Positions 4,614-36,339 of a stretch of 36,339 nt of DNA are shown one piece after another (position 1 is the stretch's first letter; every line of letters starts with the position of its first letter). The notes under the pieces were generated by a model that saw only the letters and a program-made list of their open reading frames with translations, searched no databases and was not told the origin of the DNA. Location of the stretch: the NCBI GenBank assembly GCA_021162685.1, contig JAGGYF010000036.1, forward strand, positions 1 to 36,339. The letters are read 5' to 3'. Position numbers and translations under genes: made by a program. This DNA is from Candidatus Iainarchaeum sp. (GTDB lineage: Archaea > B1Sed10-29 > WALL01).

Positions 4614-4738
4614 CTTCCAGCAAATAGTGGGGCTGTGGGGTAGCTGTGCAGCGTCCCTAGGGGAAACCTCTGCGGGTTTCCCCTGGCTACCCTGGGAAGC
4701 CCACCCCTTCCAGCAAACAATGGGGCTGTGGGGTAGCT
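4614..4738. mobile_element. 61-nt hairpin element (4646-4706) flanked by 32-bp direct repeats that include tRNA-Pro nt 1-17
   Basis: 4614-4645 vs 4707-4738 differ at 2 positions; the insert is homologous to 22490-22551. Confidence 0.85.
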
Positions 4739-4794
4739 TGGTATCCTGCGGGCTTTGGGAGCCTGTGACCTGAGTTCAAATCTCAGCAGCCCCA
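4722..4794 (+). tRNA. tRNA-Pro(TGG)
   Basis: GGGGCTG/CAGCCCC acceptor, CGGGC-TTTGGGA-GCCTG anticodon arm, TTCAAAT T-loop. Confidence 0.97.
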
Positions 4795-4830
4795 TTACTT
4801 AACAGCGTAGTTTTGTTGAGGAGCACCAAT

Positions 4831-4916
4831 GCAGGGGTTCCAGAGCCTGGTCAAATGGGCAGGACTTAAGATCCTGTGGCTTAGTGCCTACGAGGGTTCG
4901 AATCCCTCCCCCTGCA
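4831..4916 (+). tRNA. tRNA-Leu(TAA)
   Basis: GCAGGGG/CCCCTGC acceptor, CAGGA-CTTAAGA-TCCTG anticodon arm, long variable arm. Confidence 0.97.
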
Positions 4917-5242
4917 CTGACCAAATTACATATGGTCGTTCGTAGTGTGGCATAAAGCCACACTATTAGAAATCATTGAAAGGAAGGGGTGTGGAATCCG
5001 AGGGTACGCAAAGCGAAGCAAGGGAGTATATCCCCATAGTATGCTCTGCGCTTCGCATTGCGCAGGGGGAACCTGGGTTCCCCATAAAGGACGCTCTGAC
5101 CAAATTACATATGGTCGTTCGTAGCGTGGCAGCCTTTTTCCGCTTCAGGCGGAAAAAGCCTGGGGAAAGTATAATCATGTTCGCCCTGCCGGCGAACAAG
5201 GACGCCTTCGGCGTTTTATGCTTACAAAATCACACCATTAGA
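4917..5242. repeat. Composite of small hairpin elements directly after tRNA-Leu: 36-bp direct repeat (4917-4952, 5096-5131), inverted long copy of the tRNA-Pro element (4982-5095), second element (5130-5242)
   Basis: Repeat copies are 35/36 identical; 5130-5213 nearly identical to 36189-36271; many GC-rich stem-loops. Confidence 0.85.
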
Positions 5243-5306
5243 GGAGGGGGCTGCCTCCTAGTGATATCTTTCAGATTCCCGTATATCCTAGTTGAATGGT
5301 GATTTA

Positions 5307-5729
5307 ATGAAACAATATCCAGAAGTCACAGTTGGCGCGCTCATAGTAGACGAGAATGGTGAGATCCTACTCATACGCTCTCACAAATGGAGCAATAAAT
5401 ACGTGGTCCCTGGGGGCCACATAGAAATCGGTGAGACAATAGAAGAAACACTGAAAAGAGAGGTAAAAGAGGAGACAAACCTTGACATAGAGGTTGGGGA
5501 ATTCCTTGGTGTGCAGGAGAGCATATTTGATGAAACGTTTTGGAAGAAGGAAAGACATTTCATCTTTTTAGATTTTGTTTGCAGATTAAAACGAAAAAAT
5601 GAAATAAAACTAAACTATGAAGCACAGGAGTATATATGGATCAAACCAGAAAAAGCTCTTGAAATAGATGTAGAACCATACACAAAAAAAGCTATTGAGA
5701 GATATATAGAGGTAAGGGATAGAAAATGA
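5307..5729 (+). CDS. Nudix hydrolase
   Basis: Nudix box GGHIEIGETIEETLKREVKEETNL; start at ATG 5307 after GGTGA. Confidence 0.92.
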   Translation: MKQYPEVTVGALIVDENGEILLIRSHKWSNKYVVPGGHIEIGETIEETLKREVKEETNLDIEVGEFLGVQESIFDETFWKKERHFIFLDFVCRLKRKNEIKLNYEAQEYIWIKPEKALEIDVEPYTKKAIERYIEVRDRK

Positions 5730-6178
5730 GGGTTCTTCTGGTATATCATTCCCAGACAGGAAACACAAAAAGAATTGCAGAAGCTATTGCTAGTGGCATA
5801 GGAAAGGAATGCGTTGTTAAAAAAGTTAGTGAAGTAAAACCTGGTGACATAAAGAGATTTGATGTCATCGGATTTGGTACTGGTGTATACTTTGGAAAAC
5901 CTGGGAGGAGCATCGTTGAGTTCATAGAGAGATTACCGAAAGCTAAGAAAAGGGTCTTTGTGTTCGCTACATATGGCATAGGCTTCTTCGGAAAAAAAGC
6001 TATCAAAACACTTGAAACAAAACTTGAAGCAAAAGGTTTTACTGTTGGAAAGGCATTTGGATGTCTTGGTTTTGATAATTGGGGATTACTGAAAATAGTT
6101 GGTGGGATAAATAAAGGCAAACCAAATGAAGAAGACATAAAAAGAGCACATGAATTTGGGAAAGCATTACTGCCATAA
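5726..6178 (+). CDS. Flavodoxin family protein
   Basis: YHSQTGNTKRIAEAIA FMN-binding loop. Confidence 0.92.
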   Translation: MRVLLVYHSQTGNTKRIAEAIASGIGKECVVKKVSEVKPGDIKRFDVIGFGTGVYFGKPGRSIVEFIERLPKAKKRVFVFATYGIGFFGKKAIKTLETKLEAKGFTVGKAFGCLGFDNWGLLKIVGGINKGKPNEEDIKRAHEFGKALLP

Positions 6179-6565
6179 CTCCTTTATCTTTCCCTGTATA
6201 TGCTGCTCTATACCAAATGTTTTGTCTGTGTTTGCTACCATAACCAATGCTGGCCATGGAACCCCCAAATCCCATGCAGCCCTCAATCTTCTGTGACCAT
6301 CTATAAGTATATCCTTGCCATCCTTTCTCAGAATAATCACAGGGGTGTTATAACCAAACTTCAATGCCTTTTTTATCTTGACAACAATCTCATCCTCTGT
6401 TATAATCTCCTGCTCACCTGGAAATGTGTAGTATATCTCTCCAATCTTCTTCCTGTCAAGCATCTCTTCCTTTTTTTCAAATGTTATATCAGGATATATC
6501 TTCTCATAGTATCTCAAAAGCTTATTGAAGAGCTCCCTTTCCTCATATGGCTGGATAAGTGGCAT
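6167..6565 (-). CDS. ParB/sulfiredoxin N-terminal domain protein
   Basis: PVII...ILIDGHRRLRAA motif; start at 6565 after GGTGAG. Confidence 0.8.
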   Translation of the reverse strand: MPLIQPYEERELFNKLLRYYEKIYPDITFEKKEEMLDRKKIGEIYYTFPGEQEIITEDEIVVKIKKALKFGYNTPVIILRKDGKDILIDGHRRLRAAWDLGVPWPALVMVANTDKTFGIEQHIQGKIKELWQ

Positions 6566-6655
6566 GTACTCACCAGAAAAATAAATGCATATCTCCCTTA
6601 TAAGGATTGAGGCAAACATATATAAATAGCATTGCATTCAATTTTTTTGATTGAA

Positions 6656-6940
6656 ATGCCAAGTGAGGAAGAGGAAATCATCCAGCTTATCGCCCAGGAA
6701 CTTATGTCTGGGAAGAGCATAGATACTGTTGCTGGTGAATTGATACAAGCTGGTCTTCCCAGAGACGAAGCATACACTGTTGTAAATGCTGTTGCACAAC
6801 AATTGGCTGCTAGAGGTCGCGGAAGAGCGCCACCAAGAGGCGGGTATGCACCACCACCAAGAAGGCATGGCAGCATGCTAACATATTTGGTCATGATTGT
6901 GGCAATTCTAATTCTATTATACGTTATCATGTACAAGTGA
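6656..6940 (+). CDS. Hypothetical protein with C-terminal membrane anchor
   Basis: Helical N-terminus, RG/P-rich linker, hydrophobic C-terminus; start at ATG 6656. Confidence 0.7.
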   Translation: MPSEEEEIIQLIAQELMSGKSIDTVAGELIQAGLPRDEAYTVVNAVAQQLAARGRGRAPPRGGYAPPPRRHGSMLTYLVMIVAILILLYVIMYK

Positions 6941-6993
6941 TTTGAACAGACATAGTAACCAATTTATTTAATGCTGGCTAAAAACAATGCTGT

Positions 6994-7066
6994 GCCTCAG
7001 TGGCTCAGCCGGTAGAGCGCCACCTTGGTAAGGTGGAGGTCGAGGGTTCGAATCCCTCCTGAGGCT
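6994..7066 (+). tRNA. tRNA-Thr(GGT)
   Basis: GCCTCAG/CTGAGGC acceptor, CCACC-TTGGTAA-GGTGG anticodon arm. Confidence 0.97.
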
Positions 7067-7223
7067 TAGGGAGGCCTTGTGCCTCCCGTTTGTGGATTTA
7101 GGTTTTGATGAAACTTCACATTACACAACATCAGAAATACAGATGGTTTTATACCTCTCGTTGTATGATGTGCGTGAAAAGTTTCTTCGGATTCCGCCGA
7201 GGCTTTTCCAAGGGAGATTTGCT

Positions 7224-7613
7224 ATGAAAAAGTTTCTTGACAAAAACAATATAATAGCAGTTGTTGGTGCATCGCCCAACAAAGAGAAGTGGGGCTGGAA
7301 GATATTCACAAAACTACGGGAATCCGGATTTAAGGTATATCCAGTAAACCCAAAACATGAAAAGATTGATAATGCTAGGTGTTACCCAGACCTAAAATCG
7401 TTGCCTAAAAAACCAGATGTTGTTATAACCATTGTCCCACCACATATTACTGAGAAGGTTGTTGAACAGTGCAAAAAACTAGGCATAGAAATGGTGTGGA
7501 TGCAACCTGGCTCTGAATCAGAAGAAGCCATAAAATTTTGTAGAGAGAACGGTATTGAAGTAGTATATAATGCATGCTTTGTTGTTGATGGATTGAAAGA
7601 TATCTTCCAATAG
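7224..7613 (+). CDS. CoA-binding protein (YccU-like)
   Basis: IAVVGAS, VYPVNPK and VWMQPG motifs; start at ATG 7224 after GGGAG. Confidence 0.92.
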   Translation: MKKFLDKNNIIAVVGASPNKEKWGWKIFTKLRESGFKVYPVNPKHEKIDNARCYPDLKSLPKKPDVVITIVPPHITEKVVEQCKKLGIEMVWMQPGSESEEAIKFCRENGIEVVYNACFVVDGLKDIFQ

Positions 7614-7648
7614 AAACCTTTTTAATGCCTTCTTGTCTATTTAGATAT

Positions 7649-8710
7649 ATGGCAGTTGATTTTTCCAACCTCGTTGTGATGTACTCAGGAATACCATGGG
7701 AAGAAGTAGGGTACACACTATTAACAATCATCATAGCGCTTGTAGCATCAAAGATAATATTTGTATTCATAAAGGGCACATTGGAAAAAATCGCTGGAAA
7801 AACAAAAACAACACTTGACGACATCCTTGTAAAGGAAATGGAGACACCTACACACCTCTTCGTAGTGCTCCTTGCATTATATCTCTCCTTGACAATCTAT
7901 CCAGGAATGCAAAGGTACTTCACGCAATTTGACATTCTCATACAAATATTGCTCATATTTGTTGTCGCATATGGAGTAACAAAAGCAGTTACTGCAACCG
8001 TACGTTGGTACATGCATGAGAAGCGTGGGAAAAAATACAAATATAATTACCTCATTGTAGTCAAGAAGATAATTAACGCAGTTGTGTATATCCTGGCCAT
8101 TATTATTGTTTTATCACAACTGGGCATTGAAGTAACTCCTTTGATCACATCACTAGGGATTGGTGGACTTGCTGTTGCACTTGCATTCCAAGACACCCTG
8201 GAAAACTACTTTGCTGGGATATATGTATCAACAGACAAAGGACTAGAAGTTGGAGATTACATCCAATTATCTGAAGGCATTGCTGGAACCATAAAAGAGA
8301 TTGACTGGAGAACAACAAAGATACAGACCTGGGATGGAAACCTAGTTATCATCCCAAACTCAAAACTTGCAGAATCCACAATAACAAACTACTTTAAACC
8401 TTCGTCCTCACTCCTCGTTCCAATTGATGTGCCCATTAGCTACAATATAAAATCAGACAAAGCGATCAGAGAAATAAAAAGGCTTGTGAGCAATGTAAAG
8501 AAGAAAGCACCAGATGTTCTAGACAAAAACTTTGAAGTTATTGTCAAGATAGACTCATTTGGGGAATCAAATATCATATACAAGGTAATAGTTAAAGTCA
8601 CAAATAGAAGCAATATGTTTAAATTTAAAGAGTTATTTAATGCAGAATTGGCTAGAGCATATGATTCTGGAAAACTTGCTGTAGATTATAACATAGTTAA
8701 AGTTTTGTAG
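7649..8710 (+). CDS. mscS: Small-conductance mechanosensitive channel
   Basis: LGIGGLAVALAFQDTLENYFAG, VGDYI, IPNSKL motifs. Confidence 0.93.
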   Translation: MAVDFSNLVVMYSGIPWEEVGYTLLTIIIALVASKIIFVFIKGTLEKIAGKTKTTLDDILVKEMETPTHLFVVLLALYLSLTIYPGMQRYFTQFDILIQILLIFVVAYGVTKAVTATVRWYMHEKRGKKYKYNYLIVVKKIINAVVYILAIIIVLSQLGIEVTPLITSLGIGGLAVALAFQDTLENYFAGIYVSTDKGLEVGDYIQLSEGIAGTIKEIDWRTTKIQTWDGNLVIIPNSKLAESTITNYFKPSSSLLVPIDVPISYNIKSDKAIREIKRLVSNVKKKAPDVLDKNFEVIVKIDSFGESNIIYKVIVKVTNRSNMFKFKELFNAELARAYDSGKLAVDYNIVKVL

Positions 8711-8742
8711 CAATATCTTTTTTAACTGGTCGGTGTATAATT

Positions 8743-9441
8743 ATGCCTATGGGATTTGTATCACTAATTGGCGTAATAGCAATAGGGGTCCTCCTCCTTG
8801 TGCTGTCTTTTACAGTAGTTATGACCATTGTGGTGTATGCAATATGGAGAACAAGAAACATAATACTGCCAGAGGTCATACTTGCACTTATGAACATATT
8901 TGATTACCCAGTCAAAAGAACATTCTGGTTTTTTAAAATAGACACAGAAGCTGTTGATCTTGTGAAAACTGTGGTTATGAATAAGATCTATGAGAAACAA
9001 TTTTCTAAAATCCCTCCACAGGAAAGATTAATAGTACTGCCGCAATGTCTTAGGCATGTAAATTGCCCAGCAAGGCTTGATCCAAACGAGGGGATTGTAT
9101 GTGTTAAGTGTGGATTATGTGGGATAGCTAACATAAAAGAAGAGGCAGAAGCGCTTGGTGAAAAGGTGGTAATTGTTCCTGGTGGAACATTTGCAGCCAG
9201 GATGATGAAAAAGTTCAGACCAAAAGCAGTTATTGGGGTTGCATGTCCCGCAGAGATAAGAGAAGGAGCAGAGATTGCAATGAAACATGGCATAATCCCC
9301 CAAACGGTTCCATTACTACGTAGTGGATGTGTCAACACCGCAGTAGATTGGGATGAACTAAAAAGGGTTATGAAATTGGGTATTGGCAATGCTCCAGATT
9401 TATCTGACACAATGACAAAAAAGGCCATCATTCAAAACTAG
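8743..9441 (+). CDS. DUF116 family Cys-rich membrane protein
   Basis: LPQCLR..CPA, CVKCGLC, GVAC, GCVNT motifs. Confidence 0.88.
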   Translation: MPMGFVSLIGVIAIGVLLLVLSFTVVMTIVVYAIWRTRNIILPEVILALMNIFDYPVKRTFWFFKIDTEAVDLVKTVVMNKIYEKQFSKIPPQERLIVLPQCLRHVNCPARLDPNEGIVCVKCGLCGIANIKEEAEALGEKVVIVPGGTFAARMMKKFRPKAVIGVACPAEIREGAEIAMKHGIIPQTVPLLRSGCVNTAVDWDELKRVMKLGIGNAPDLSDTMTKKAIIQN

Positions 9442-9458
9442 CATTAGGAGAGAGGAAT

Positions 9459-10307
9459 ATGGACATCATACCAATAATGTTTGATTCTATGGGAGCAAGG
9501 TCTATGGCAACATTTGTTAAATGCAATAAGAATATCTTGATAGATCCTGGTGTAGCACTTGGTCCTTCTAGATATGGTCTGCCTCCACATCCTGTTGAAA
9601 TAAAGGCAATGGAAAGGGGTTATTCCAAAATAAAGAAATTTGCAAGAGATACGGATATTTTTGTTATATCACACTATCACTATGATCACTATGACCCTGA
9701 TGCTAAATTCTACAAAGGAACGGTTTTTGTGAAGCATCCAAAGAAATCAATAAATGCCTCCCAGAAAAGGAGAGCAGAACAGTTTATACCCAAACTGGAA
9801 AAACTTGCAGATGTTAAATTTTCAGACTCAAACGAGTATAAGATTGGCAGCCTAACAATACGTTTTTCTCATCCAATGCCACACGGTCCAGAGCATTCAA
9901 AACTGGGATGGGTTATAGGGACATGTATAGAATACAAAAAAGAGTGCTTTGTTCACACATCAGATGTACAAGGTCCGCTTGTTAAAAAATCAACAGACTG
10001 GATAATATCGCAGAATCCTGATACAATATTTTTGTGCGGAGTACTGTCCTACTTCTTAGGATGGAGATATCCAACAAAGCTACTTGACATTGCAAACAAA
10101 GAGGTTGTAAGAATCATGAAGAACACAGATGTCAAGACAATTGTTATGGACCACCACCTCGTAAGAGATCTCCACTTCAGGAAAAAGATTGCTCCAGTTG
10201 TAGAACATGCTAAAAAGTCTGGGACAAGGATTTGCACTGCTGCAGAATTTGCTGGAAAACAAAACAAATTCCTTGAGGCTGAGAGGAAGTCCTTATGGAA
10301 AAAGTAA
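9459..10307 (+). CDS. Metallo-beta-lactamase-fold hydrolase (UPF0282-like)
   Basis: DSMGARS, SHYHYDH, SDVQGP, DHHLVRD motifs. Confidence 0.88.
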   Translation: MDIIPIMFDSMGARSMATFVKCNKNILIDPGVALGPSRYGLPPHPVEIKAMERGYSKIKKFARDTDIFVISHYHYDHYDPDAKFYKGTVFVKHPKKSINASQKRRAEQFIPKLEKLADVKFSDSNEYKIGSLTIRFSHPMPHGPEHSKLGWVIGTCIEYKKECFVHTSDVQGPLVKKSTDWIISQNPDTIFLCGVLSYFLGWRYPTKLLDIANKEVVRIMKNTDVKTIVMDHHLVRDLHFRKKIAPVVEHAKKSGTRICTAAEFAGKQNKFLEAERKSLWKK

Positions 10308-10792
10308 GATGTTTTATCTCTGGCATGCCAGGATGCGGAAAAACAACGATGATAGAGAGACTTCTTCCATACATAAAAGATTACACTGGATTCATAACAA
10401 AGGATGTAAGAGAGCATGGAAAAAGAGTAGGATTTGACATAGAAGACATAGTTACAAAAGAAAGGCTTCCACTGGCAAGAACAGGCAGGGAAAAACCAAC
10501 TGTTGGAAAATACCACATATTTATTGATAATCTTGAAAGGATTGCTTTGAACGCCATAGAAAGAAAAGCGAACGTTCTAGTAATAGATGAAATTGGAAAA
10601 ATGGAGTTTTGTTCAAAAAGGGTCAAAGAGAAGATATTAGATGCAATAGAGAGCAATAGAAACCTCGTTGCTACCCTTCACAGAAATTATCTGCATTTGG
10701 CAAGAAACAATACACTCATATGGCTTGAGAAGGGGCATTGGAATGAAACATTTGAAAGGCTTAGGAAATTATTAAAAGGAGTTTGTAAATAA
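10295..10792 (+). CDS. NTPase (THEP1/NTPase_1 family)
   Basis: GMPGCGKTT Walker A, IDEIGKME Walker B, RVGFDI. Confidence 0.92.
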   Translation: MEKVRCFISGMPGCGKTTMIERLLPYIKDYTGFITKDVREHGKRVGFDIEDIVTKERLPLARTGREKPTVGKYHIFIDNLERIALNAIERKANVLVIDEIGKMEFCSKRVKEKILDAIESNRNLVATLHRNYLHLARNNTLIWLEKGHWNETFERLRKLLKGVCK

Positions 10793-10805
10793 GATTAGGC
10801 ACTAC

Positions 10806-10941
10806 GCCGGCGTAGCTCAGCCTGGTTAGGCCATGCGTCGTTGATGAAATCGGCGCAGGGACCAAAGCGCCAGACTCATAGGGATGGCATGAGCCCTCCG
10901 GAGATATCTGGAGGTCGCGGGTTCAAAGCCCGTCGCCGGCA
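10806..10941 (+). tRNA. tRNA-Met(CAT), elongator type, with two introns (10830-10865 in the D-arm; 10881-10905 at 37/38)
   Basis: GCCGGCG/CGCCGGC acceptor; removing both inserts restores the GCTC/GAGC D-stem and CCAGA-CTCATAA-TCTGG. Confidence 0.9.
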
Positions 10942-11029
10942 CTTTTTCTTAGTAATTGCAAGAAAATAGTTAAACTTTGATATGATAATGCCATAAAACT
11001 TATATATGTGAAAATAACATAATATTAAT

Positions 11030-11281
11030 ATGAATATAAGTATGCATTTTGAAGGGATTATGGAAGAAATTATTGAAAAACTCCTCAAGCTGGGGATTGC
11101 AAAAACAAAAGCTGAAGCGCTTAGGCTTGGACTGCTTGAGCTGAACGATAAATATCAGTTAGTAGGAGTAGACAAGGAACTTGAAGAGGACTTAATAGAA
11201 ATAAACAGAATTGAAAGGGATATCAAAACAGGCAAGGAAAAGGTTTACTCTGTTAAGAATGTTGCTGAGCTGCTGGCATGA
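11030..11281 (+). CDS. Putative antitoxin (RHH-like N-terminus)
   Basis: 83 aa, KTKAEALRLGL helix, acidic C-terminus, ATGA overlap with a RelE-like gene. Confidence 0.75.
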   Translation: MNISMHFEGIMEEIIEKLLKLGIAKTKAEALRLGLLELNDKYQLVGVDKELEEDLIEINRIERDIKTGKEKVYSVKNVAELLA

Positions 11282-11523
11282 AAATCAAAAGAACGGCTAC
11301 GTTCAAGAAAGATGTCGAGAAACTTGATTCCCAAAGCAAGCAAACTCTCAGAAAAATGATTGAGAAAATCCTTGCCAACCCTGTTCGGTTCAAGCCAATG
11401 AAACATCACTCAAACATTTTCAGAATTAGGTTTAGCAAACTCAGACTTGTTTATAAAGTTGAACAAGACGTTATTACATTCATGTTCGTAAGGAAAAGAA
11501 ACAAAGTTTATAGAAATGTGTGA
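11278..11523 (+). CDS. RelE/ParE family toxin
   Basis: 81 aa, basic; FKKDVEKL...FRIRFSKLRLVYKV pattern. Confidence 0.85.
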   Translation: MKIKRTATFKKDVEKLDSQSKQTLRKMIEKILANPVRFKPMKHHSNIFRIRFSKLRLVYKVEQDVITFMFVRKRNKVYRNV

Positions 11524-11589
11524 ACCGGGGGATCGTCGCCGGCACTCTTTTTGCAAAGGTTTTTAAAGATTGGAGAGATTAATATCAAT

Positions 11590-12618
11590 ATGCCCCGTAT
11601 TACCATGAATGAAGCAAATAATGCCCTGAAATGTCTCAAAGCTCGCAAGGGACATAGGCTTATTATTGTTTTTGATTCTGCAGAAAAACAAGCAATCGCA
11701 AACAAGATACGCAGAGCTGCCAGAAGAAGAGGTATAAGGACAAAATTAATTGACATAAGAGAGCTATTTCAAAAAGGAAACGAAAGATATGTTCTTCAGG
11801 AAATAGAATCGCAACTCTCAAGATTTTTTGGAAGAGCTTCTCACAAGGAAAAGAATGCTATTACATTGATAGGTAATAAAAAACCTTATGCATCTGTAAG
11901 GGGAAAGATAGTGAGGAAGATACTTGAGCAGAATGGATACGTTTTACACATACCAACAGACAACACCAACGTAATAAAAAATCTCCTAGCATTAAATCCA
12001 AATGAATTGGAAAAACGTGGAAATACACTAATTGAGAGACTCAAAAACGCTAGAAGCATAATAATAACTACTGAAGCAGGAACAAATCTTACAATCCCAT
12101 GGCATCCAGAGAAAAGGAGTTGGGTACTAAGTGTTGGAAAAGTCAAGGATTATAGTGTTGGTAAAGGAGGATGGGGCAATCCTGGAGGGGAGGTATTTAC
12201 ATCACCAATACATGAAGGGGTTAGGGGGAAAATTGTTGTGGACGGTTCATTTGGAAATTTTGGATTGGTTAAAGAACCAATAGAAATAGAATTTGATGAA
12301 AGAGGTAGGGCAATCTTAAGTAAGATCAAACATGATGGGATAAGGAAGAAACTATCAAAAGATAAAAATGCTTGTAGACTTGGAGAACTAGGAATAGGAC
12401 TTGTGCCAGGAGAACTTATAGGAGACACCCTATTTGATGAGAAAAAAGAGGGAACAATCCATGTGGCATTTGGCCATGATGAGTCAGAAAGGGGAACAGG
12501 AGGAGAAAATGAAAGTGAAATCCACGAAGATGCGATAATCATGAACCCTACTGTAGTAGTTGTGGATCATAAAGGGAAAAAGCATACAATTATGAATAAA
12601 GGGAAACTCTGTGTATGA
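11590..12618 (+). CDS. Peptidase M29 (aminopeptidase T/AmpS-like) family protein
   Basis: GTNL, NPGGEVF, GELGIG, DEK..GTIHVAFG, IHED motifs; start uncertain. Confidence 0.8.
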   Translation: MPRITMNEANNALKCLKARKGHRLIIVFDSAEKQAIANKIRRAARRRGIRTKLIDIRELFQKGNERYVLQEIESQLSRFFGRASHKEKNAITLIGNKKPYASVRGKIVRKILEQNGYVLHIPTDNTNVIKNLLALNPNELEKRGNTLIERLKNARSIIITTEAGTNLTIPWHPEKRSWVLSVGKVKDYSVGKGGWGNPGGEVFTSPIHEGVRGKIVVDGSFGNFGLVKEPIEIEFDERGRAILSKIKHDGIRKKLSKDKNACRLGELGIGLVPGELIGDTLFDEKKEGTIHVAFGHDESERGTGGENESEIHEDAIIMNPTVVVVDHKGKKHTIMNKGKLCV

Positions 12619-12686
12619 GGGAGTACGGGCTAGATTTTTATACCTCCTCTGCATTATTCTACTGACTAGTTCTGCGGGGTGCGAGG

Positions 12687-13325
12687 ATGGATTTAGCAAA
12701 AAAGGCAGCTGGTGAGAAGGCTGTAGAGTTTATAAAAGATGGCATGATTGTTGGTCTGGGAACAGGTTCAACTGTGTTTTATACTCTAAAAAGAATTGGA
12801 GACCTTGGCTTAGACATCATAGGTATCTGCACAAGCGTTGATACAGAAAACAAATGCAAAGAGTTTGGTATAAAAATTGGGGACATAAATGAATATGTTC
12901 CTGAAATTGCAATAGATGGTGCAGATGAGGTTGACCCAAACAAAAATTTGATAAAGGGTGGGGGAGGAGCATTAACTAGAGAGAAAATTGTTGATTACAG
13001 AGCTAAAGAACTTGTTGTCGTTGTCGGAGAGAATAAACTTGTTGATTATTTAGGCCAAAGATTTTACCTCCCAGTAGAAGTGCTTCCGTTCTGTTGGAAA
13101 AGAGTAAAGAGCGAACTTGAACAAATGTTTGAAAAGGTTGTGAAAAGAGATTTTGTAACAGACAACAAAAATTATATACTAGATTGTTATGGTAGAATAG
13201 AGGGTCCAAAAACATTGGAAAGGGAATTGAATAACATTCCAGGTGTTGTTGAAAATGGACTATTCACAAAGAACACTGGGAGAGTTGTGGTTGGCAAAGA
13301 CAATGGAGAAGTGGAGATAATATGA
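12687..13325 (+). CDS. rpiA: Ribose-5-phosphate isomerase A
   Basis: GLGTGST, DGADEVD, KGGGGALTREK. Confidence 0.97.
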   Translation: MDLAKKAAGEKAVEFIKDGMIVGLGTGSTVFYTLKRIGDLGLDIIGICTSVDTENKCKEFGIKIGDINEYVPEIAIDGADEVDPNKNLIKGGGGALTREKIVDYRAKELVVVVGENKLVDYLGQRFYLPVEVLPFCWKRVKSELEQMFEKVVKRDFVTDNKNYILDCYGRIEGPKTLERELNNIPGVVENGLFTKNTGRVVVGKDNGEVEII

Positions 13326-13957
13326 TTTTGGTTGTGAATTTCAAAACATACGAGCAGAGTATAGGTGAGCGAGGATTGAAGCTTGCTAAGACCTTAGAGG
13401 GGATTACGAAAAATGCTATTGTTTGCCCGCAGATGCCAGACCTAAGGTACATAGCGAATCATGTGGATATCCCGGTGTATGCACAACATATTGATAGTAT
13501 AAAACCAGGAAGCCATACTGGCTGGATACTCCCAGAGGCAATAAAGGAAAGCGGATGTGAGGGCACTCTAATAAATCATTCAGAGCATACCTTGAGCATC
13601 AATGAAATAAAGGAAAGGGTTGAAAGGTGCAGAGATATTGGACTAAAATCAATGGTCTGCGTGCCTGACATAGAAACAGAAGAAAGGGTTGTAGACATGG
13701 AGCCAGATTTTATAGCTATTGAACCACCAGAGCTTATTGGTGGGAATGTATCAGTTGCAACTGCTAAACCTGAGTTAATAGAGAAAGCAGTAGAGGTAAG
13801 CAGAGGTATTCCATTATTATGTGGCGCTGGGATAAACAGCGCAGAAGATATAAAGATAGCAAAAGAACTCGGAGCAATAGGTGTTTTGGTTGCATCAGCA
13901 ATTGTGAAGAGCAAAAATCCGAAAAGTGTAATAGAATCATTTGCTGAATATTTATGA
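13322..13957 (+). CDS. tpiA: Triosephosphate isomerase, archaeal type
   Basis: NFKTY, NHSEH, IEPPELIG, CGAGI. Confidence 0.97.
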   Translation: MILVVNFKTYEQSIGERGLKLAKTLEGITKNAIVCPQMPDLRYIANHVDIPVYAQHIDSIKPGSHTGWILPEAIKESGCEGTLINHSEHTLSINEIKERVERCRDIGLKSMVCVPDIETEERVVDMEPDFIAIEPPELIGGNVSVATAKPELIEKAVEVSRGIPLLCGAGINSAEDIKIAKELGAIGVLVASAIVKSKNPKSVIESFAEYL

Positions 13958-13966
13958 GGTGAAACA

Positions 13967-14869
13967 ATGGATATAGTTGTTGGTCCAAAGGATGGTTTCT
14001 CAGAAAGGATTGCTGAGTATCTAAACCTAACATTTGTTCCACTGCACAGAAGGGTTTTTCCAGACAGAGAGATATGCCCAAGGATTGTTGATGCCATAAA
14101 AGGAAAAAGCGTTCTATTTGTTTCAAGAACAAGTGGTGCAGATGCATTTCATCCAAACAGATATCTAATTGAACTGTATTTAGCATTGACAAACTTGAAA
14201 AGTTTGGGTGCAAAGGAATTAAACGTATTGATGCCATATTTTGTTTACGCAAGACAGGACAAAGTGTTCAGAGAAGGAGAGGTTGTATCAGCAAAAGCAG
14301 TACTTGACCTTCTGAAAAACTTAGGTGTTAAGCGGTTCTATACAGTAACAGCACACATGCAAAGAGAAGAAGGAAAGCTAAGGTTTTATGACGAGATGGA
14401 GTGTTATACAATAGATGGTTTTGAGGAGATTGGAAAATACATAAAAGCAAAATACAATCCAGAAAATCCATTAGTTCTGGGTCCTGATTTGACTGCAAGC
14501 TCTGGGGCAGAAACTGTTGCTAAGGTTTTGGGAATCTCTGAAAGCTCTGCATTGGAAAAGTTTAGGGATAGGGACACAGGTGCAACAGAAACAAAAGGTG
14601 AGCTTCCTGAACTAAATGGCAGAGATGTTATTATTGTTGATGACATTGCTGCAACTGGGGGTACTATGTCCAAAGCAGTTAGCATGTGTAAGGAGAAAGG
14701 AGCAGGGAAGATCATCTGTGCTGTTGTTCATCCTGTTCTAGCTCAGGATTGTTTGAATAGGATAAGAAACACAGGTGCAGAATTCATTGGATGCAATACA
14801 ATAGAATCATGCATATCAAAGGTACATGTTGAGAAAAAGATTGCTGAGTTCATAAAACAGCATTCCTAA
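13967..14869 (+). CDS. prs: Ribose-phosphate pyrophosphokinase
   Basis: [26 protein letters not shown]. Confidence 0.95.
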
Positions 14870-15503
14870 GTTCTTTCAATGCCTCGGCTGGGTCTGGTTT
14901 TTTGAATATTGCTGACCCAGCAACCAAAACATCTGCTCCTTTTTCAACAACCTGGGGAGCAGTTTGCAGATTTATCCCTCCATCTATCTCAATCTCAAAT
15001 GAAAGCTTTTGTTCCTCCCTCATCTCTTTAAGCTGGGTTATCTTTGGTAGAACATTTTTTATGAATGCTTGGCCACCAAACCCTGGATTTACTGTCATCA
15101 AGCAGACCATATCTATATCTGTGAGGACATGCTCTATCATGTAAACGGGTGTTGCAGGATTCAAAACAACTGCTGGTTTTGCTCCCAGTTTTCTTATGAG
15201 CTGCAATGTTCTATGCAGATGTTTACATGCCTCGGTATGTACAGAAATAATATCGCTCCCAGATTCTATAAACTCTGGGATATAAGTATCTGGGTTGTCT
15301 ATCATCAAGTGTGTGTCAAGAGGCAGATCTGTAACATTATCAACTGCTTTTACAACAATTGGGCCCATTGTGATGTTCGGAACAAAATGACCATCCATCA
15401 CATCTATATGGATATAGTCTGCACCAGCCTCCTCAACTGATTTTATTTGTTCTCCAAGTCGCGAGAAGTCTGCAGATAAGATAGAAGGAGCAATCTTTAC
15501 CAT
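14850..15503 (-). CDS. rpe: Ribulose-phosphate 3-epimerase
   Basis: [35 protein letters not shown]. Confidence 0.97.
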
Positions 15504-15570
15504 GAGACCACCGTACCTATTTATGTAGATAAAACTTTTTAAATGATGATTGACAAAAATACTCTCTATT

Positions 15571-15667
15571 GCCTCGGTAGCTTAGCGGTATAGCGCCGGT
15601 CTTGTACAGCCCAACAATATGGGCTAAAGATAACCGGAGGTCGAGGGTTCGAATCCCTCCCGAGGCT
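15571..15667 (+). tRNA. tRNA-Thr(TGT) with a 25-nt intron at 37/38 (15607-15631)
   Basis: GCCTCGG/CCGAGGC acceptor, CCGGT-CTTGTA|A-ACCGG, intron hairpin AGCCCA/TGGGCT. Confidence 0.93.
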
Positions 15668-15813
15668 TCTGGCATTCAAGTGCGGAGCACATGCTTGAGA
15701 CAGTGCATTTCTCTTGGAAATACACTCCCCTTTCGTTGATTGCCTGTACTGGAAGTAAAATTTATTTGCCACACATTTATAAACTCTTTTTTGTATAAAA
15801 TCATCGAAGCAGT

Positions 15814-16252: not shown

Positions 16253-16277
16253 AGCCAAAAACCGTTTCAATTGAACA

Positions 16278-16894: not shown

Positions 16895-16914
16895 TTGAAA
16901 CCGCATACACTAGT

Positions 16915-22903: not shown

Positions 22904-22904
22904 T

Positions 22905-23445: not shown

Positions 23446-23455
23446 GGTGAGATGT

Positions 23456-24928: not shown

Positions 24929-24933
24929 GTGAT

Positions 24934-26754
24934 ATGATGGAAGAAGAAGTTGCTAATGTTTATCTCAATGGAAAACTCATTGGTTTTCACTCAAAGCCAG
25001 AGGAATTTGTGGAAACTGTAAGAAAACGAAGAAGAAAAGGGGAACTACCATCTGAACTTAATGTGGCGTACTACCCACAAACAGGAGAGATATACATAAA
25101 TACAGATGCTGGAAGAGCAAGAAGACCATTGATAGTTGTTGAGAACGGAAAACCAAAACTAACAAAAAAACATATACAAGACCTAAAGCATGGAAAGATC
25201 ACCTGGTCAGATCTTGTAAAGGAGGGTGTTGTTGAATTCCTTGATGCTGAAGAAGAAGAGAATGCGTACATTGCAGTTGATGAAGACTCACTTACAGAGG
25301 AGCACACACACATGGAGATACACCCTGCCCTAATTCTCGGTGTTGTGGCTGCAACTGCCCCATTCCCTCATCACAATTCATCCCCAAGAGTTACAATGGC
25401 ATGCGCAATGCTTAAGCAAGCACTTGGGGTATACCAAACAAACTTTAATGTTAGGATGGACACGCAGGCACACATTATGCATTATCCACAAAAACCAATA
25501 AGTATAACGAAGATTGCGAAAAAGGTTGGTATTGCTGAGAGACCAGCTGGACAGAACATGGTTGTCGCTGTTATGCCATACTATGGATATAACATGGCAG
25601 ATGCCATCATCATAAACAAGGCATCAATTGAGAGAGGACTTGGGAGAACAACATTCTACAGAACATACGTCTCAGAGGAGAGAAGATACCCTGGTGGGCA
25701 GAAGGACAGATTTGAGATACCAAAACCAGAGATACAGGGATACAGGGGAGACCAAGCATATAGGTTCCTTGGTGAGGACGGAATCATAGAACCAGAATGT
25801 GAAGTTAAAGGAGGAGATGTACTAATAGGAAAAACATCACCACCAAGATTCCTTGAAGAAGTTGGAGAGCTGAGTATGATTGAAGAGAAGAGAAGGGAAA
25901 ACTCAGTTACAATGAGGCCAGATGAACATGGGGTTGTAGATAAGGTTATAATCACAGAGGCAACAACAGGTAACAAACTTGTTAAGGTAAGAGTGAGAAC
26001 ATTGAAAATTCCAGAAATCGGAGATAAGTTTGCATCAAGACATGGACAAAAGGGTGTTGTTGGACTGATTGTGCCTCAACATGATATGCCATTTAATGAG
26101 CATGGTATAAGTCCTGATCTGATAATGAACTCCCATGCGATTCCATCAAGAATGACCATTGGGCACGTGCTTGAGCTGCTTGGAGGAAAAGCAGCATGCT
26201 TTAAGGGAAAAGAGGTTGATGCAACAGCATTTGAGAAGCTTGATGAAGAGGATATAGAAAAAGAACTGGCGAAATATGGATTCAGGCCAGACGGAAAAGA
26301 GATAATGTATGATGGGATAACAGGGGAAATGATTGAGGCGAAGATATTTGTTGGAGTAACATACTACCAGAGGCTAAAACATTTGGTTTCAAATAAGATG
26401 CATGCACGTTCAAGAGGTCCTGTCCAAATATTGACAAGGCAACCGACAGAAGGTAGGGCAAGAGAAGGAGGATTGAGATTTGGAGAGATGGAAAGAGACA
26501 CACTAATAGGGCATGGAGCATCAATGCTGTTACTTGAGAGATTACTAAAAGAATCCGATGTAGTTACAGAACTGATATGTGAAAATTGTGGCTCAATAGC
26601 AATTGACGACCAGATAAGAAAGAAGAAGTATTGTACGGTGTGTGGAAGTACAAAAGTGAGCCCAGTTGAGATGAGTTATGCATTCAAGTTACTATTGAAT
26701 GAACTAAGGGCTCTTTGTATAAGGCCGAGGGTTGTGTTGGAGGATAAGGCATAG
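24934..26754 (+). CDS. rpoB1: RNA polymerase subunit B' (Rpo2C)
   Basis: [24 protein letters not shown]-terminal Zn ribbon. Confidence 0.97.
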
Positions 26755-34473: not shown

Positions 34474-34525
34474 ATAATATTAATAAACTTTAAAAACAAA
34501 AAATAAGGAGAGTTGGTGATAGAGT

Positions 34526-35794
34526 ATGGCAGACGATAAACCTCACTTGAACCTTGTGTTCATCGGACACGTAGACCATGGAAAGTCTACACTAGTCGGC
34601 AGGATCCTGTATAATACAGGGGCTGTTGACGAAAACACAATGAGAAAGCTTAAAGAAGAGGCAGAAAAGCTAGGGAAGGCAACATTCGAGTTCGCATTCG
34701 TCATGGACCGATTGAAGGAAGAGAGGCAGAGAGGTCTAACCATTGACCTGGCACACAAGGACTTTAAAACAAGCAAGTATTATTTCACAATCATTGATGC
34801 ACCAGGTCACAGAGACTTCGTAAAGAATATGATTACAGGAGCCTCTCAAGCAGATGCAGCAGTACTGGTTGTTGATGTTGCAAGTGGCGTACAACCACAA
34901 ACAAAGGAACACGCATTCCTAGCAAGAACACTGGGTATCAAGCAGCTCATTGTAGCAATAAACAAGATGGATGCAGTGAACTTTGATCAGGCAAAGTACA
35001 ATGAAACAAAGTCACAGGTAGAGAACCTATTAAAGACAATTGGTTATGATACAAGCAAGATACCGTTCATACCAACATCTGCATACGCAGATGCAAATGT
35101 TACATCAAAGAGTGACAAGACACCGTGGTACAATGGTCCATCACTCATAGATGCACTGAATGCTCTAGAAGTTCCACCAAAACCAATGGACAAACCATTG
35201 AGATTGCCTGTGCAGGATGTATATAACATCACAGGTATTGGTACAGTACCTGTTGGTAGAGTAGAAACAGGTGTTTTGAAGGTTGGTCAACAGGTAATAG
35301 TAATGCCATCCGGTGCAAAAGGAGAAGTAAAGAGTATTGAGATGCACCACCAACCAATGCAACAGGCAGAACCAGGAGACAATGTTGGTTTCAATATAAG
35401 AGGTATCGGAAAGAACGATGTTAAGAGAGGAGATGTTGTCGGACCAGTTGAACACCCACCAACAGTTGCAAAGGAATTCACCGCACAGATTGTTATTTTG
35501 CAACACCCAAGTGCAATCACAGCAGGTTATACACCAGTATTCCACTGCCACACAGCACAGGTTGCATGTACAATATCAGAACTAATAAAGAAATTGGACC
35601 CAAGAACAGGACAAGTAGTTGAGGAAAATCCAAAGTTCCTCAAAACAGGTGACGTAGCAGTTGTTAAAGTAATACCAACAAAGCCAATGGTAATAGAGAG
35701 TTCAAAGGACTTCCCACAGCTAGGAAGATTCGCAGTCAGAGATATGGGAATGACAGTTGCAGCTGGTATGGTTTTAGAGGTAACACCAAAGTAA
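34526..35794 (+). CDS. tuf: Translation elongation factor EF-1 alpha
   Basis: [21 protein letters not shown]. Confidence 0.98.
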
Positions 35795-35830
35795 AGCCCT
35801 TCGGGGCTTCCTAACCCCATTTTGTTTTTT
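35794..35830 (+). terminator. UUCG hairpin and T-tract after tuf
   Basis: AAGCCC-TTCG-GGGCTT followed by TTTTGTTTTTT. Confidence 0.55.
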
Positions 35831-35842
35831 AGGTGAAGAATA

Positions 35843-36151
35843 ATGCAGATTGCAACAGTAAAGCTCACAGGACCTGATTATAAGAAGTTGGATATGGTAT
35901 GCAACCAGATAAAGGAGATTTGTAAAAAGACCGGTGCAAAGGTATCCGGGCCAATTCCCCTACCAACGAAAAGATTGCATATCCCAACAAGAAAGAGTCC
36001 ATGTGGCGACGGCTCAGAGACTTATGAGCACTGGGAGATGCGCATCCACAAACGCCTTCTGAACATAGAAACAGATGAGAGAACCTTACGCCAAGTAATG
36101 CGTGTCCAGGTTCCAGACCAGGTTCATATTGAAATAGAGCTAAAAGAATAG
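35843..36151 (+). CDS. rps10: 30S ribosomal protein S10 (uS10)
   Basis: GPIPLPTK, RKSPCGDG, MRIHKRL. Confidence 0.97.
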   Translation: MQIATVKLTGPDYKKLDMVCNQIKEICKKTGAKVSGPIPLPTKRLHIPTRKSPCGDGSETYEHWEMRIHKRLLNIETDERTLRQVMRVQVPDQVHIEIELKE

Positions 36152-36188
36152 ATTACTTTTTAAATCTCTAATTCTCTAAACATTAAAA

Positions 36189-36299
36189 CAGCCTTTTTCC
36201 GCTTCAGGCGGAAAAAGCCTGGGGAAGTATAACCATGTTCGCCCTGCCGGCGAACAAGGACGCCTTCGGCGCATGCTTAAAAGATCCCACTATTAGAAA
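36189..36299. mobile_element. Second copy of the three-hairpin element found at 5130-5242
   Basis: 83/84-nt core differs by one indel and one substitution; tail ends in CACTATTAGAAA. Confidence 0.85.
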
Positions 36300-36306
36300 A
36301 CCATAA

Positions 36307-36321
36307 GCTGGGGTCGCATAG
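36307..36321 (+). other. Probable tRNA-Ser 5' fragment interrupted by a repeat element
   Basis: GCTGGGGTCGCATAG resembles an archaeal tRNA-Ser 5' end, and tRNA-Ser often follows rps10; it continues into CCCAAATTACATATGGG instead of a D-loop. Confidence 0.5.
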
Positions 36322-36339
36322 GCCCAAATTACATATGGG

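Follow-up and report, generated by a model that had tools for sequence, protein, structure and literature searches.

Our analysis supports the view that the hairpin elements found around the tRNA genes of this archaeon are insertions rather than stand-alone RNA genes. A single module is found between direct repeats that differ from locus to locus and range from 11 to 49 bp, and since the same element lies between different locus-specific duplications, we read the repeats as target duplications and not as attachment sites. The window, by which we mean the whole analysed stretch of 36,339 nucleotides, comes from a DPANN assembly (G000) of 1.11 Mb that is 98.4% complete, and across this genome we count at least six families of hairpin insert (A, Amid, B, D, E and F) at 25 loci. 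The modules are 50-120 nt long, gene-less, rich in hairpins and modular, and their copies occur in both orientations and also within one another, which bears out the claim of a preliminary description, made from the window alone, that hairpin modules recombine and nest. Moreover, 14 of the 25 loci have a tRNA within 100 nt, whereas 2000 random placements averaged 0.33 such loci and never exceeded 3. The tRNA-targeting insertion system proposed in that description thus stands as regards insertion and a strong enrichment at tRNAs, although the target range is wider: elements also follow the 5S rRNA, occur where a carbamoyltransferase-like gene starts and where a surface-protein gene stops, and occupy hairpin loops of other elements.

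Insertions in the window

The window contig carries eight tRNAs, as had been claimed, when ARAGORN is run with introns allowed (8 calls; the ARAGORN default gives 6 and Rfam 7). Repeat-bounded inserts had been described next to five of them, and this is borne out at both Pro tRNAs, at Leu-TAA and at Thr-TGT (repeats of 32, 39, 39, 16 and 12 nt). It fails for tRNA-Met, where there is only a 13-nt AT-rich match of 92% whose second copy lies within an ORF (11030-11281). The Pro(TGG)-Leu(TAA) region and tRNA-Thr(GGT) show the following features.

4614-4645, + strand: left target duplication, an orphan copy of tRNA-Pro(TGG) nt 1-17 with 15 nt of its upstream flank
4646-4706, + strand: A element, short form, with CAGC start, long hairpin and C-rich tail
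4707-4794, + strand: right copy of the duplicated target, continuous with the intact tRNA-Pro(TGG) (4722-4794)
4831-4916, + strand: tRNA-Leu(TAA), with stacked elements immediately after it
4917-4977, + strand: B element, two hairpins, short tip (fold z -5.0)
4978-5097, - strand: A element, long form (fold z -3.05)
5006-5063: Amid module, 58 nt, with inverted ends, inside the long A element
5093-5131, + strand: repeat of the initial 39 nt of B, ending in the loop of B hairpin 2
5132-5242, + strand: E element, three hairpins, sitting in the loop of B hairpin 2 (fold z -3.7)
7067-7116, + strand: F module immediately behind tRNA-Thr(GGT)

On the 5' side of tRNA-Pro(TGG) a 61-nt insert is enclosed by 32-nt direct repeats (4614-4645 and 4707-4738, 94% identical), and the A element there (4646-4706) folds at -30.5 kcal/mol (z -2.6). 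Behind tRNA-Leu(TAA) the direct repeats measure 39 nt (4914-4952 and 5093-5131, 95% identical), while at tRNA-Thr(GGT) we saw no repeat flanking the F module. Further features lie around tRNA-Pro(CGG) and tRNA-Asp(GTC) and near the contig end.

22451-22489, + strand: orphan copy of tRNA-Pro(CGG) nt 1-17 with 22 nt of its upstream flank
22490-22551, + strand: A element, short form, with the other hairpin tip (fold z -2.0)
22552-22646, + strand: right copy of the duplicated target, continuous with the intact tRNA-Pro(CGG) (22574-22646)
22648-22759, + strand: D element behind tRNA-Pro(CGG), TTCAGC start and then a hairpin
22760-22774, + strand: right repeat of the D insertion, a copy of tRNA-Pro(CGG) from the T-loop to the 3' end
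22945-22999, - strand: intron of tRNA-Asp(GTC) at position 37/38, with an A-like hairpin core reversed
36187-36275, + strand: second E element of the window, behind an S10-like gene
36306-36321, + strand: orphan tRNA-Ser(GGA) fragment, nt 1-14 preceded by 2 nt from its upstream flank, followed by a B start

The 62-nt insert 5' of tRNA-Pro(CGG) lies between 39-nt repeats (22451-22489 and 22552-22590, 95% identical). It has exact blocks of 19 and 27 nt in common with the other Pro insert (BLAST), and the hairpin tip between these blocks differs. Behind the same tRNA, repeats that are exact over 11 nt (22637-22647 and 22764-22774; 16 versus 15 nt with one indel) surround a 112-nt insert, the D element, whose fold (22648-22745) is not significant at z -1.3. 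Two tRNA fragments had been taken as marks of further events, and both are accounted for as right-hand repeats, one at Thr-TGT and one at Pro-CGG. There is one additional real fragment, the 5' piece of tRNA-Ser(GGA) at 36306-36321, and the contig end falls inside the repeat that follows it; contigs tend to break within these repeats.

The resemblance of the Asp intron to an element was correctly noted: its reverse complement matches an A copy from contig C32 in 29 of 33 aligned columns, and 0 of 500 shuffles scored that well. The intron occupies position 37/38 of an otherwise intact tRNA, as expected of an archaeal bulge-helix-bulge tRNA intron, and the Asp tRNA has no intron in the related genomes G002 and G005. 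Judged from the alignment, this candidate bulge-helix-bulge intron is a former element insertion with an A-derived core.

Duplications and breakpoints

The duplications vary within each family. For A, the two Pro tRNAs show 32 and 39 nt, the start codon of the carbamoyltransferase-like gene (contig C36) 41 nt, two His tRNAs 18 and 11 nt and Leu-CAA 20-24 nt; for B, 17 nt at Ser-GGA, 25 nt at Ser-GCT and 18 nt at His. For E we find 14 nt inside a B loop, a perfect 47 nt and, at tRNA-His, three copies of 22 nt in G004, 27 nt at a tRNA-Ser of G003 and 16 nt at a tRNA-Ser of G002. The inner breakpoint falls in the D-loop, T-loop or anticodon loop of a tRNA (the last being the module within the intron), or in the loop of a resident module. 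By our reading of the alignments, all seven 5'-side insertions end at tRNA positions 15-17 and 13 of 14 3'-side insertions begin within the 7-nt T-loop, and at least five insertions lie in B or E hairpin loops. Because the duplication extends outward beyond the gene end, it restores the gene to one intact copy, and the surplus fragment stays behind next to the insert as an orphan.

The ends of the modules are imprecise. The 5' ends vary by a few nt between modules but always lie close to CAGC followed by a long hairpin. The 3' ends are ragged, and three junctions match the target over 4-5 nt: CTTCC for Pro-TGG, CCTTT for C36 and GCGC in G004. Reading the sequence ends revealed no inverted termini for A, B, D or E; Amid is the only module with inverted ends, 14 of 16 positions matching. 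Modules are copied along with neighbours or bits of old flank, hence their nested, recombined look. In the seven A insertions with a duplication seen on both sides the A 5' end lies at the gene-internal breakpoint, whereas behind tRNAs the 5' ends of D and E lie at the outer end of the gene.

Could the repeats instead be attachment sites of site-specific integrases (SSV-, pNOB8- or phage-type), and the inserts decayed plasmid or virus remnants? The repeats that run from the T-loop to the 3' end do look like classical tRNA attachment sites, integrase genes are present in G002, G003 and G004, and a cassette behind tRNA-Thr(TGT) has the following layout.

15656-15667, + strand: left cassette repeat, the last 12 nt of tRNA-Thr(TGT)
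15668-16968: 1.3-kb cassette with three ORFs, behind tRNA-Thr(TGT)
15977-16252, + strand: cassette ORF
16278-16679, - strand: cassette ORF with a weak ParE/RelE-like match
16619-16906, - strand: cassette ORF
16969-16980, + strand: right cassette repeat, a copy of the tRNA-Thr 3' end

The repeats (15656-15667 and 16969-16980) are exact over 12 nt. A second cassette, at tRNA-Thr(CGT) on contig C17, is homologous to the first at both ends, and the two have the same 11-12 nt repeat and toxin-antitoxin-like genes. For these cassettes a separate cause may apply, as the preliminary description allowed. For the mini-elements, however, the attachment-site reading is highly improbable and is contradicted by the occurrence of one module between unrelated repeats, at no fewer than ten tRNAs and at protein-gene ends. 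Moreover, the repeats extend into non-conserved upstream flank, duplications also occur on the 5' sides of tRNAs, and the inserts hold no decayed genes, being multi-copy and 85-100% alike. Elements driven by tyrosine integrases carry a recombinase and a fixed attachment sequence, whereas here there is no recombinase and the repeats vary by locus; Phage_integrase matches occur in three of six genomes and do not track the elements, being absent from the element-bearing G000, at 98.4% completeness, and G001.

Structure, conservation and empty sites

Family E is also present in four further genera. Its hairpin 2 has 8 pairs, with 97.2% of cells paired against 26-39% in slid controls. Two-sided changes occur in 43 cells, whereas shuffles average 14.7 and none of 500 reaches that value. 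Hairpin 1 folds in 16 of the 16 copies examined, with five different distal stems, and contains T5/A5 runs.

Such conservation with compensatory changes across genera would also be expected of functional parts of RNA genes (leaders, trailers, terminators or processing signals) that selection maintains and that local duplication or gene conversion would have multiplied. The T5/A5 runs resemble a bidirectional archaeal terminator, and at both Pro tRNAs TATA-like boxes lie to the left of the duplication, so that the insert is probably transcribed as a leader. However, we consider it unlikely that function alone explains the modules: the orphan gene fragments and locus-specific duplications are insertion footprints, copies occur in both orientations, nested and at protein-gene ends, and syntenic loci in relatives lack the modules. 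Thus in G002, G004 and G005 a DUF2666 gene, tRNA-Pro(TGG) and tRNA-Leu(TAA) stand in the same order and there is no 5' duplication, and in G005 Pro(CGG)-Tyr-Asp is present and the insert absent. Four metagenome runs, which gave short contigs only, contained no empty-site allele. Function and mobility of the modules are not mutually exclusive.

Mobility enzymes

The window had been described as free of any recognisable mobility enzyme, and a comparison of nine window ORFs with Pfam found none. Genome by genome, we searched for nine enzyme families in total with Pfam and NCBIfam models, five of the six family genomes being 84-89% complete. There was no match to RVT_1 (reverse transcriptase) on the binned contigs of six genomes or to Y1_Tnp (HUH) in six, none to the IS1634 model NF033559, IS110 or Prim-Pol in five, and none to Cas1 in G000, the one genome searched for it. 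TnpB exceeds the cut-off in G002 only. DDE_Tnp_1 does so in G000 only, in an ordinary single-copy IS, and the elements are not explained by a known IS family, the counter-explanation that the preliminary description had named: this sole transposase gene of G000 belongs to an IS5/IS1182-like IS with a 9-bp duplication and ends, starting GGCTTTGCG, unlike those of the mini-elements, and it scores 21.5 bits against NF033559 (cut-off 100). None of the nine families follows the distribution of the elements, integrase, TnpB and DDE genes included. The trans-acting enzyme of the preliminary description is an assumption; an unseen one may reside on an unbinned plasmid or virus, or belong to an unknown family.

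Such an enzyme could be a transposase or nuclease of unrecognised type, or else a reverse transcriptase supplied by an unbinned plasmid, a virus or the host, and would recognise the CAGC-hairpin head and nick tens of bases apart at hairpin loops. The same head in all families, the limitation of breakpoints to D- and T-loops, and compensatory changes that keep the hairpins across four genera, as expected if mobility needs structure, speak for it. SINEs are marked by variable duplications, ragged 5' ends and 3' microhomology, and tRNA genes are favoured by some eukaryotic retroelements. Our modules, short, structured and non-coding, show the same three hallmarks, which would suit target-primed reverse transcription; unlike SINEs they have no A-rich or LINE-derived tail and insert inside the tRNA gene, not beside it, and the reverse transcriptase partner is the RVT_1 family missing above. 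Transposition of the IS1634/IS1549 type is the other possible kin: as far as the cited part of the source goes, these elements yield direct repeats of variable length, 8-514 bp, and have no accepted model (PMC2266710). They are, however, IS4-related, autonomous and 1.5-2 kb long, with inverted ends and a large DDE transposase, whereas the modules here have no inverted ends, have imprecise ends and carry flanks along. Given these enzyme searches and ends, we regard a dedicated enzyme as possible but rather unlikely.

Discussion

Our tentative preference is that non-autonomous structured modules are inserted with a long, variable target duplication through copying by a polymerase rather than by a transposase. 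How could such an insertion arise? A DNA 3' end would form at the hairpin loop of exposed single-stranded DNA, such loops being offered most often by heavily transcribed, structured RNA genes. It would be extended using another module copy as template, and synthesis would then return via microhomology to the original template tens of bases back, duplicating the target; a dedicated transposase would not be required. The survivors would be insertions near enough to a gene end for the duplication to rescue the gene in a compact genome, while an insertion at 37/38 would survive otherwise, as a spliced intron. The imprecise ends and junction microhomology suit copying by a polymerase at least as well as an enzyme. 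Against copying, dispersed donor copies are needed as templates, whereas template switching usually copies nearby sequence; the common CAGC-plus-hairpin head could also be what a specific protein recognises; breakpoints fall within a few nt in D- and T-loops, as a structure-specific nuclease would give; and the orientation of insertion is not uniform (A versus D and E). Overall, the preliminary observation is partly confirmed and its interpretation partly supported.

Insertion with long target duplication was reportedly described by Nobusato et al. in 2000. In the portion of the paper by Furuta, Abe and Kobayashi (2010) used here, it concerns kilobase restriction-modification units in bacteria, with repeats of more than 30 bp and up to about 400 bp, and no archaeal case passed the screen (PMC2853133). 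The resemblance, to the extent of that portion, lies in long, variable, locus-specific target repeats that often overlap a gene end, with no linked mobility gene (PMC2853133). Here too we find a locus-specific duplicated flank, no mobility gene and an empty site in a relative; duplications of 32, 39, 39 and 41 bp (window or G000), another of about 49 bp and one of 47 bp in G004 pass their 30-bp threshold, and the shorter ones miss it. Unlike those units, ours are 50-120 nt non-coding multi-copy modules with 11-49 bp repeats and hairpin-loop breakpoints.

The modules are also small, multi-copy, hairpin-forming and non-autonomous like MITEs, REP/BIME and PATE. REP and PATE elements require Y1 HUH enzymes and insert without duplication, and an origin from IS200/IS605 (PATE) or REP/RAYT was rejected on the missing Y1_Tnp and the duplications present. 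MITEs are defined, in the cited part of the source, by inverted termini and 2-10 bp duplications (PMC11602168). This class was rejected as well: A, B, D and E have no terminal inverted repeats of at least 10 bp, the duplications are longer and variable rather than short and fixed, and G000 lacks a partner transposase whose ends would match. The one module with the look of a true MITE is the nested 58-nt Amid. Finally, the tRNA-disruption model of Sugahara et al. (2012), in the passages drawn on here, relates intron gain and tRNA fragments to mobile DNA (PMC3293823); as in that model and in tRNA integrative elements, we see tRNA fragments beside an insert and an intact tRNA restored.

More generally, in this organism gene-less hairpin insertions, mostly in the loops of tRNA genes, duplicate 11-49 bases and so leave the gene whole.

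Inserts beside the tRNA genes

Our analysis indicates that the insertions are real, and that the phenomenon is larger than the preliminary description had supposed. The window is the whole of contig C12 of the assembly G000 (1.11 Mb in 45 contigs, 98.4% complete, 0.01% contamination), and ARAGORN, with introns allowed, places eight tRNA genes on its plus strand, in this order:

tRNA-Pro(TGG), plus strand
tRNA-Leu(TAA), plus strand
tRNA-Thr(GGT), plus strand
10806-10941, plus strand: tRNA-Met(CAT) with two introns when read by hand, tRNA-Thr(CGT) with one intron according to ARAGORN
tRNA-Thr(TGT), plus strand
tRNA-Pro(CGG), plus strand
tRNA-Tyr(GTA), plus strand
tRNA-Asp(GTC), plus strand

In the gene at 10806-10941 the D-loop intron carries a C-box-like TGATGA motif, and the other intron lies at 37/38. 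Rfam returned nothing above noise in the window except tRNAs. From 23185 on, the sizes and order of the ORFs point to a cluster of RNA polymerase and ribosomal protein genes; two adjacent ORFs of 497 and 606 aa (23435-26754) stand at the expected place of the large RNA polymerase subunit B and, by size and order, suggest a split rpoB.

Repeat-bounded inserts had been claimed at both Pro genes and at Leu, Met and Thr(TGT). A repeat search recovered a 61-nt insert upstream of Pro(TGG) between 32-nt direct repeats (94%), a 62-nt insert upstream of Pro(CGG) between 39-nt direct repeats (95%), 39-nt direct repeats (95%) 3' of Leu(TAA), and a 1.3-kb block 3' of Thr(TGT) between exact 12-nt repeats. 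We take the Met repeat to be chance, a 13-nt AT-rich match at 92% with one copy within a coding frame. The two upstream Pro inserts are one element differing in its hairpin tip, and each of their repeats combines non-conserved upstream flank (15 or 22 nt) with tRNA nucleotides 1-17. On the 3' side of Pro(CGG) there is a further repeat with an exact 11-nt core (16 versus 15 nt with one indel). The likeness of the Asp intron to an element also held: its reverse complement agrees with a copy of module A on contig C32 in 29 of 33 columns, a score that none of 500 shuffles reached.

Hairpin modules

Self-comparison and module searches yield at least six gene-less modules in G000:

A: starts near CAGCGTCC; a variable-tipped G-run/C-run hairpin, followed by TACCCTGGGAAGCC and then a tail rich in C
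Amid: 58 nt with inverted ends, nested within some A copies
B: two hairpins
D: CAGC start and a long hairpin
E: CAGC start and a long hairpin, then two more hairpins
F: a hairpin and an AT-rich hairpin

We treat A, B and E as separate units because each can occur singly within its own duplication; they also stack and nest. The modules fold well, with z-scores between -2.0 and -5.0 in A, B and E; D has -1.3. In hairpin 2 of E, 97.2% of cells are paired against 26-39% in slid controls, and double changes occupy 43 cells, where shuffles average 14.7 and none of 500 came as high, a comparison that kinship of the sequences can inflate. Hairpin 1, which was folded copy by copy because MAFFT misaligns it, folds in all 16 copies examined, with five distinct distal stems. 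Judged from these comparisons, compensatory changes have maintained the E hairpins; correction of one palindrome arm against the other could also preserve the pairing in the absence of selection. By eye we rejected module B as a C/D-box RNA, as it has no canonical C or D box. The F module at 7067-7116, behind tRNA-Thr(GGT), overlaps the start of the ORF at 7077-7613, and ATGAAACTT at 7109 is present in F copies elsewhere too; the element may supply the start of this ORF.

Distribution in the genome

A search with the modules other than F finds them at 25 loci of G000, 14 of which lie within 100 nt of a tRNA, where 2000 random placements gave 0.33 on average and never more than 3 (41 ARAGORN calls, one dubious call with a 1302-nt intron having been dropped). 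The remaining 11 loci are:

one abutting a tRNA-Leu(GAG) missed by ARAGORN
one behind a 5S rRNA gene
one at the start codon of a carbamoyltransferase-like gene
two at the stop codons of surface-protein paralogues
one 225 nt 3' of tRNA-Leu(TAG), within a stack of more inserts
three at the ends of contigs
two more, on C3 and C7

The proposal of tRNA targeting thus stands as a preference and fails as an exclusive rule, given the loci at 5S rRNA and at protein-gene ends. Could the bias simply reflect which insertions survive? By our rough estimate the rescuable tRNA target amounts to about 2 kb, where protein-gene ends and intergenic DNA offer tens of kilobases, so a simple survival filter cannot explain it. 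The 5S rRNA gene (locus L056, C14:about 13600-14203) is directly followed by two D, two reversed long A and one B, so that inserts gather also behind a structured RNA gene other than a tRNA. Five contig ends fall within modules (the 3' end of C12, which matches C15:21395-21487, and ends of C13, C19, C31 and C41); since contigs break inside modules, the copy numbers fall short of the true ones and certain tRNA loci are divided among contigs.

G000 has three tRNA-His(GTG) genes, on C26, C31 and C44, in an assembly with an estimated contamination of 0.01%. One has a 58-nt intron containing A-like and B-like hairpins and one is intronless, and in both of these the A head is inserted in the T-loop. 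The tRNA-Leu(GAG) missed by ARAGORN (L049, C15:41013-41128) has a hairpin intron straight after D-loop position 15, the site where element insertions break other tRNAs.

Target duplications and junctions

A is flanked by repeats of 32 and 39 nt at two Pro genes, 41 nt at a protein gene, 18 and 11 nt at two His genes and 20-24 nt at a Leu gene; B is flanked by 17 and 25 nt at two Ser genes and 18 nt at a His gene, and E, inside B, by 14 nt. An event at a protein-gene stop duplicated about 49 nt with a 25-nt exact core, and other genera show a perfect 47 nt, 22 nt in three copies, 27 nt and 16 nt. Since one and the same module is bounded by unrelated, locus-specific repeats, these are target duplications rather than attachment sites. 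Upstream of the tRNA-His of G004, a relative of the same family, two identical E copies are set apart by three copies of the 22-nt duplication (L040, L041), either from tandem amplification or from repeated insertion at a single site.

The 1.3-kb block behind Thr(TGT) holds three ORFs, one with a weak ParE/RelE-like match (E 7.8e-4, below the cut-off), and shares about 65 nt of homology at each end (78-81%) with a second cassette, located at tRNA-Thr(CGT) on C17. There, at C17:124-1960, two cassettes are stacked 3' of the tRNA between three copies of its last 11 nt, the outer repeat extending to about 23 nt. One of the two carries a gene on the minus strand, and the other a pair of ORFs that by eye resemble an antitoxin and a RelE-type toxin. 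As both Thr tRNAs share the repeat end, target duplication and attachment site are indistinguishable here, and we regard the two as about equally probable.

By our reading, on the 5' side all seven insertions interrupt the tRNA in the D-loop, following position 15, 16 or 17, and on the 3' side 13 of 14 do so within the 7-nt T-loop (53/54, 57/58 or 58/59), the sole exception being the Thr cassette, where the break is in the T-stem. At least five insertions lie in a loop of hairpin 1 or 2 of B or of hairpin 2 of E, and the Asp copy sits in the anticodon loop, at 37/38. The duplication always runs outward past the gene end, leaving one gene copy intact and the other as an orphan fragment beside the insert. 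The TATA-like boxes of both Pro genes, as we read them, lie just left of the duplication, so the intact Pro tRNA is probably transcribed through fragment and insert, which together would form a long leader. Resolution of cruciforms was rejected as a source of the duplications, since the duplicated segments are not whole palindromes.

Such tight clustering of breakpoints, together with the common CAGC-hairpin head, favours an enzyme, unrecognised or unbinned, that would make widely staggered nicks; this is the main rival to the mechanism that we discuss below. The element ends bear on the choice. They have no inverted termini; the 5' junction varies by 0-6 nt ahead of a common GC(G/C) start (GTGCA-, TACA-, CA-, AGA- and AAGA- for A; none, CCAGCA- and CCGAACG- for E), and the 3' boundary is ragged. 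Three junctions (CTTCC, CCTTT, GCGC) have 4-5 nt in common, the canonical element closing with the same bases that open the duplicated target. Imprecise ends and microhomology argue against a transposase that recognises precise ends and accord with copying by a polymerase. B's canonical 3' tail is similar to the flank upstream of Ser tRNAs, a likeness suggesting that earlier flanks were carried along. In orientation, A has its 5' end at the gene-internal breakpoint in all seven insertions with both repeats seen, and D and E behind tRNAs are turned the opposite way.

Relatives and empty sites

A DNA search with 4914-5242 matched four of the five other genomes of the family and none of 35 outside it. 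The E covariance model finds 7 copies in G000 and 10, 2, 25, 11 and 0 in the relatives G001 to G005, and the 25 genomes searched from other families of the class gave two marginal matches only (E 3e-4 and 9e-4). In the relatives, too, E follows tRNAs immediately (Pro, Leu twice, Gly, Ala, Ser, Val); other copies lie within the 5' portion of tRNAs for Ser and His or stand behind protein genes.

G002, G004 and G005 share the order DUF2666 gene, tRNA-Pro(TGG), tRNA-Leu(TAA) with the Pro gene uninterrupted. Behind Leu(TAA), G005 has no insert, and G002 and G004 have different ones with 15-nt duplications. In G005 the series Pro(CGG)-Tyr-Asp lacks the A element, and the Asp tRNA is intronless in G002 and G005; these comparisons are between genera, so that loss might in principle account for them. 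For the perfect 47-bp event of G004, the intergenic part of the orthologous flanks in G002 and G005 is too diverged for an empty site to be recognised within the genus. Over 4300-23300, four DNA runs, whose contigs are short and about 5-fold deep, gave no joint skipping an insert and one repeat; their joints came mostly from tRNAs of other organisms, and the one relevant joint, from 5005 to 5063, is another genomic copy without Amid.

Searches for an enzyme

No known enzyme co-occurs with the elements among the families and genomes searched, in line with the earlier remark that no mobility gene is recognisable nearby. RVT_1 and Y1_Tnp are absent from all six family genomes, IS1634, IS110 and Prim-Pol from the five searched, and Cas1 from G000. 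Phage_integrase occurs in three of six (none in G000, G001 or G005), TnpB exceeds the cut-off in G002 only and DDE_Tnp_1 in G000 only. Absence is not proven by this, since completeness is only 84-89% in five of the six genomes and the repeats interrupt contigs.

The DDE gene of G000 belongs to a single-copy insertion sequence (L017, C37:27687-29027 continuing on C23). It encodes a distantly IS5/IS1182-like transposase of 367 aa with a small ORF upstream; its inverted ends begin GGCTTTGCG, and 9 bp of target are duplicated (AAAGTGACC); one fragment, a 74-nt end piece, lies on C4. We rejected it as partner of the mini-elements on account of this 9-bp duplication and its unlike ends. It may be related to Amid, whose inverted ends share CGCAAAGC, and not to the other modules. 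The 1.1-1.4 kb repeats of the genome self-comparison were likewise rejected as insertion sequences, being paralogous, internally repetitive genes.

Discussion

How could modules without genes spread in this way? Any answer must accommodate insertion with long, variable duplications, breakpoints in loops, imprecise ends, microhomology and conserved structure, all of which are established here. In the copying mechanism that we infer, with the staggered-nick enzyme as its main rival, a hairpin loop of exposed single-stranded DNA would give a 3' end, this end would be extended on another module copy as template, and synthesis would then resume upstream on the original template, duplicating the target; selection would retain only insertions rescued by duplication or splicing. 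We put forward more generally, as a doubtful conjecture, that in DPANN and probably other archaea small structured modules multiply without a transposase, ordinary replication or repair polymerases copying them in where a nick or stall arises at a hairpin loop of a heavily transcribed RNA gene, and that the same process brings new tRNA introns to the anticodon loop and D-loop.

The closest phenomenon on record is the unexplained 'insertion with long target duplication' known from bacterial restriction-modification genes (PMC2853133), followed by the long variable repeats of IS1549 and IS1634 (PMC2266710); MITEs as usually defined have inverted ends and 2-10 bp duplications (PMC11602168), which the mini-elements do not fit. 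Sugahara et al. linked a recombinase-bearing element to tRNA intron gain and tRNA fragments (PMC3293823). A 2026 preprint on Asgard archaea finds no general pathway by which introns arrive and calls the arrival of archaeal tRNA introns open (bioRxiv 10.64898/2026.10.13.758758). We found no description of such mini-elements in DPANN or other archaea in the literature that was searched.

On the practical side, the inserts break assemblies and confuse tRNA callers, and annotation pipelines misread the orphan tRNA fragments and long leaders to which they give rise. More generally, mobile DNA is normally defined by its enzyme, and here there are multi-copy insertions in several genera, with clear footprints, for which no enzyme was found. 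Our results extend the bacterial 'insertion with long target duplication' to tiny non-coding archaeal elements, and if the copying mechanism is true, it would be a self-propagating form of templated insertion. The Asp intron, which holds a member of a tRNA-inserting family and has intronless relatives, offers a concrete and testable route by which an intron may arrive.
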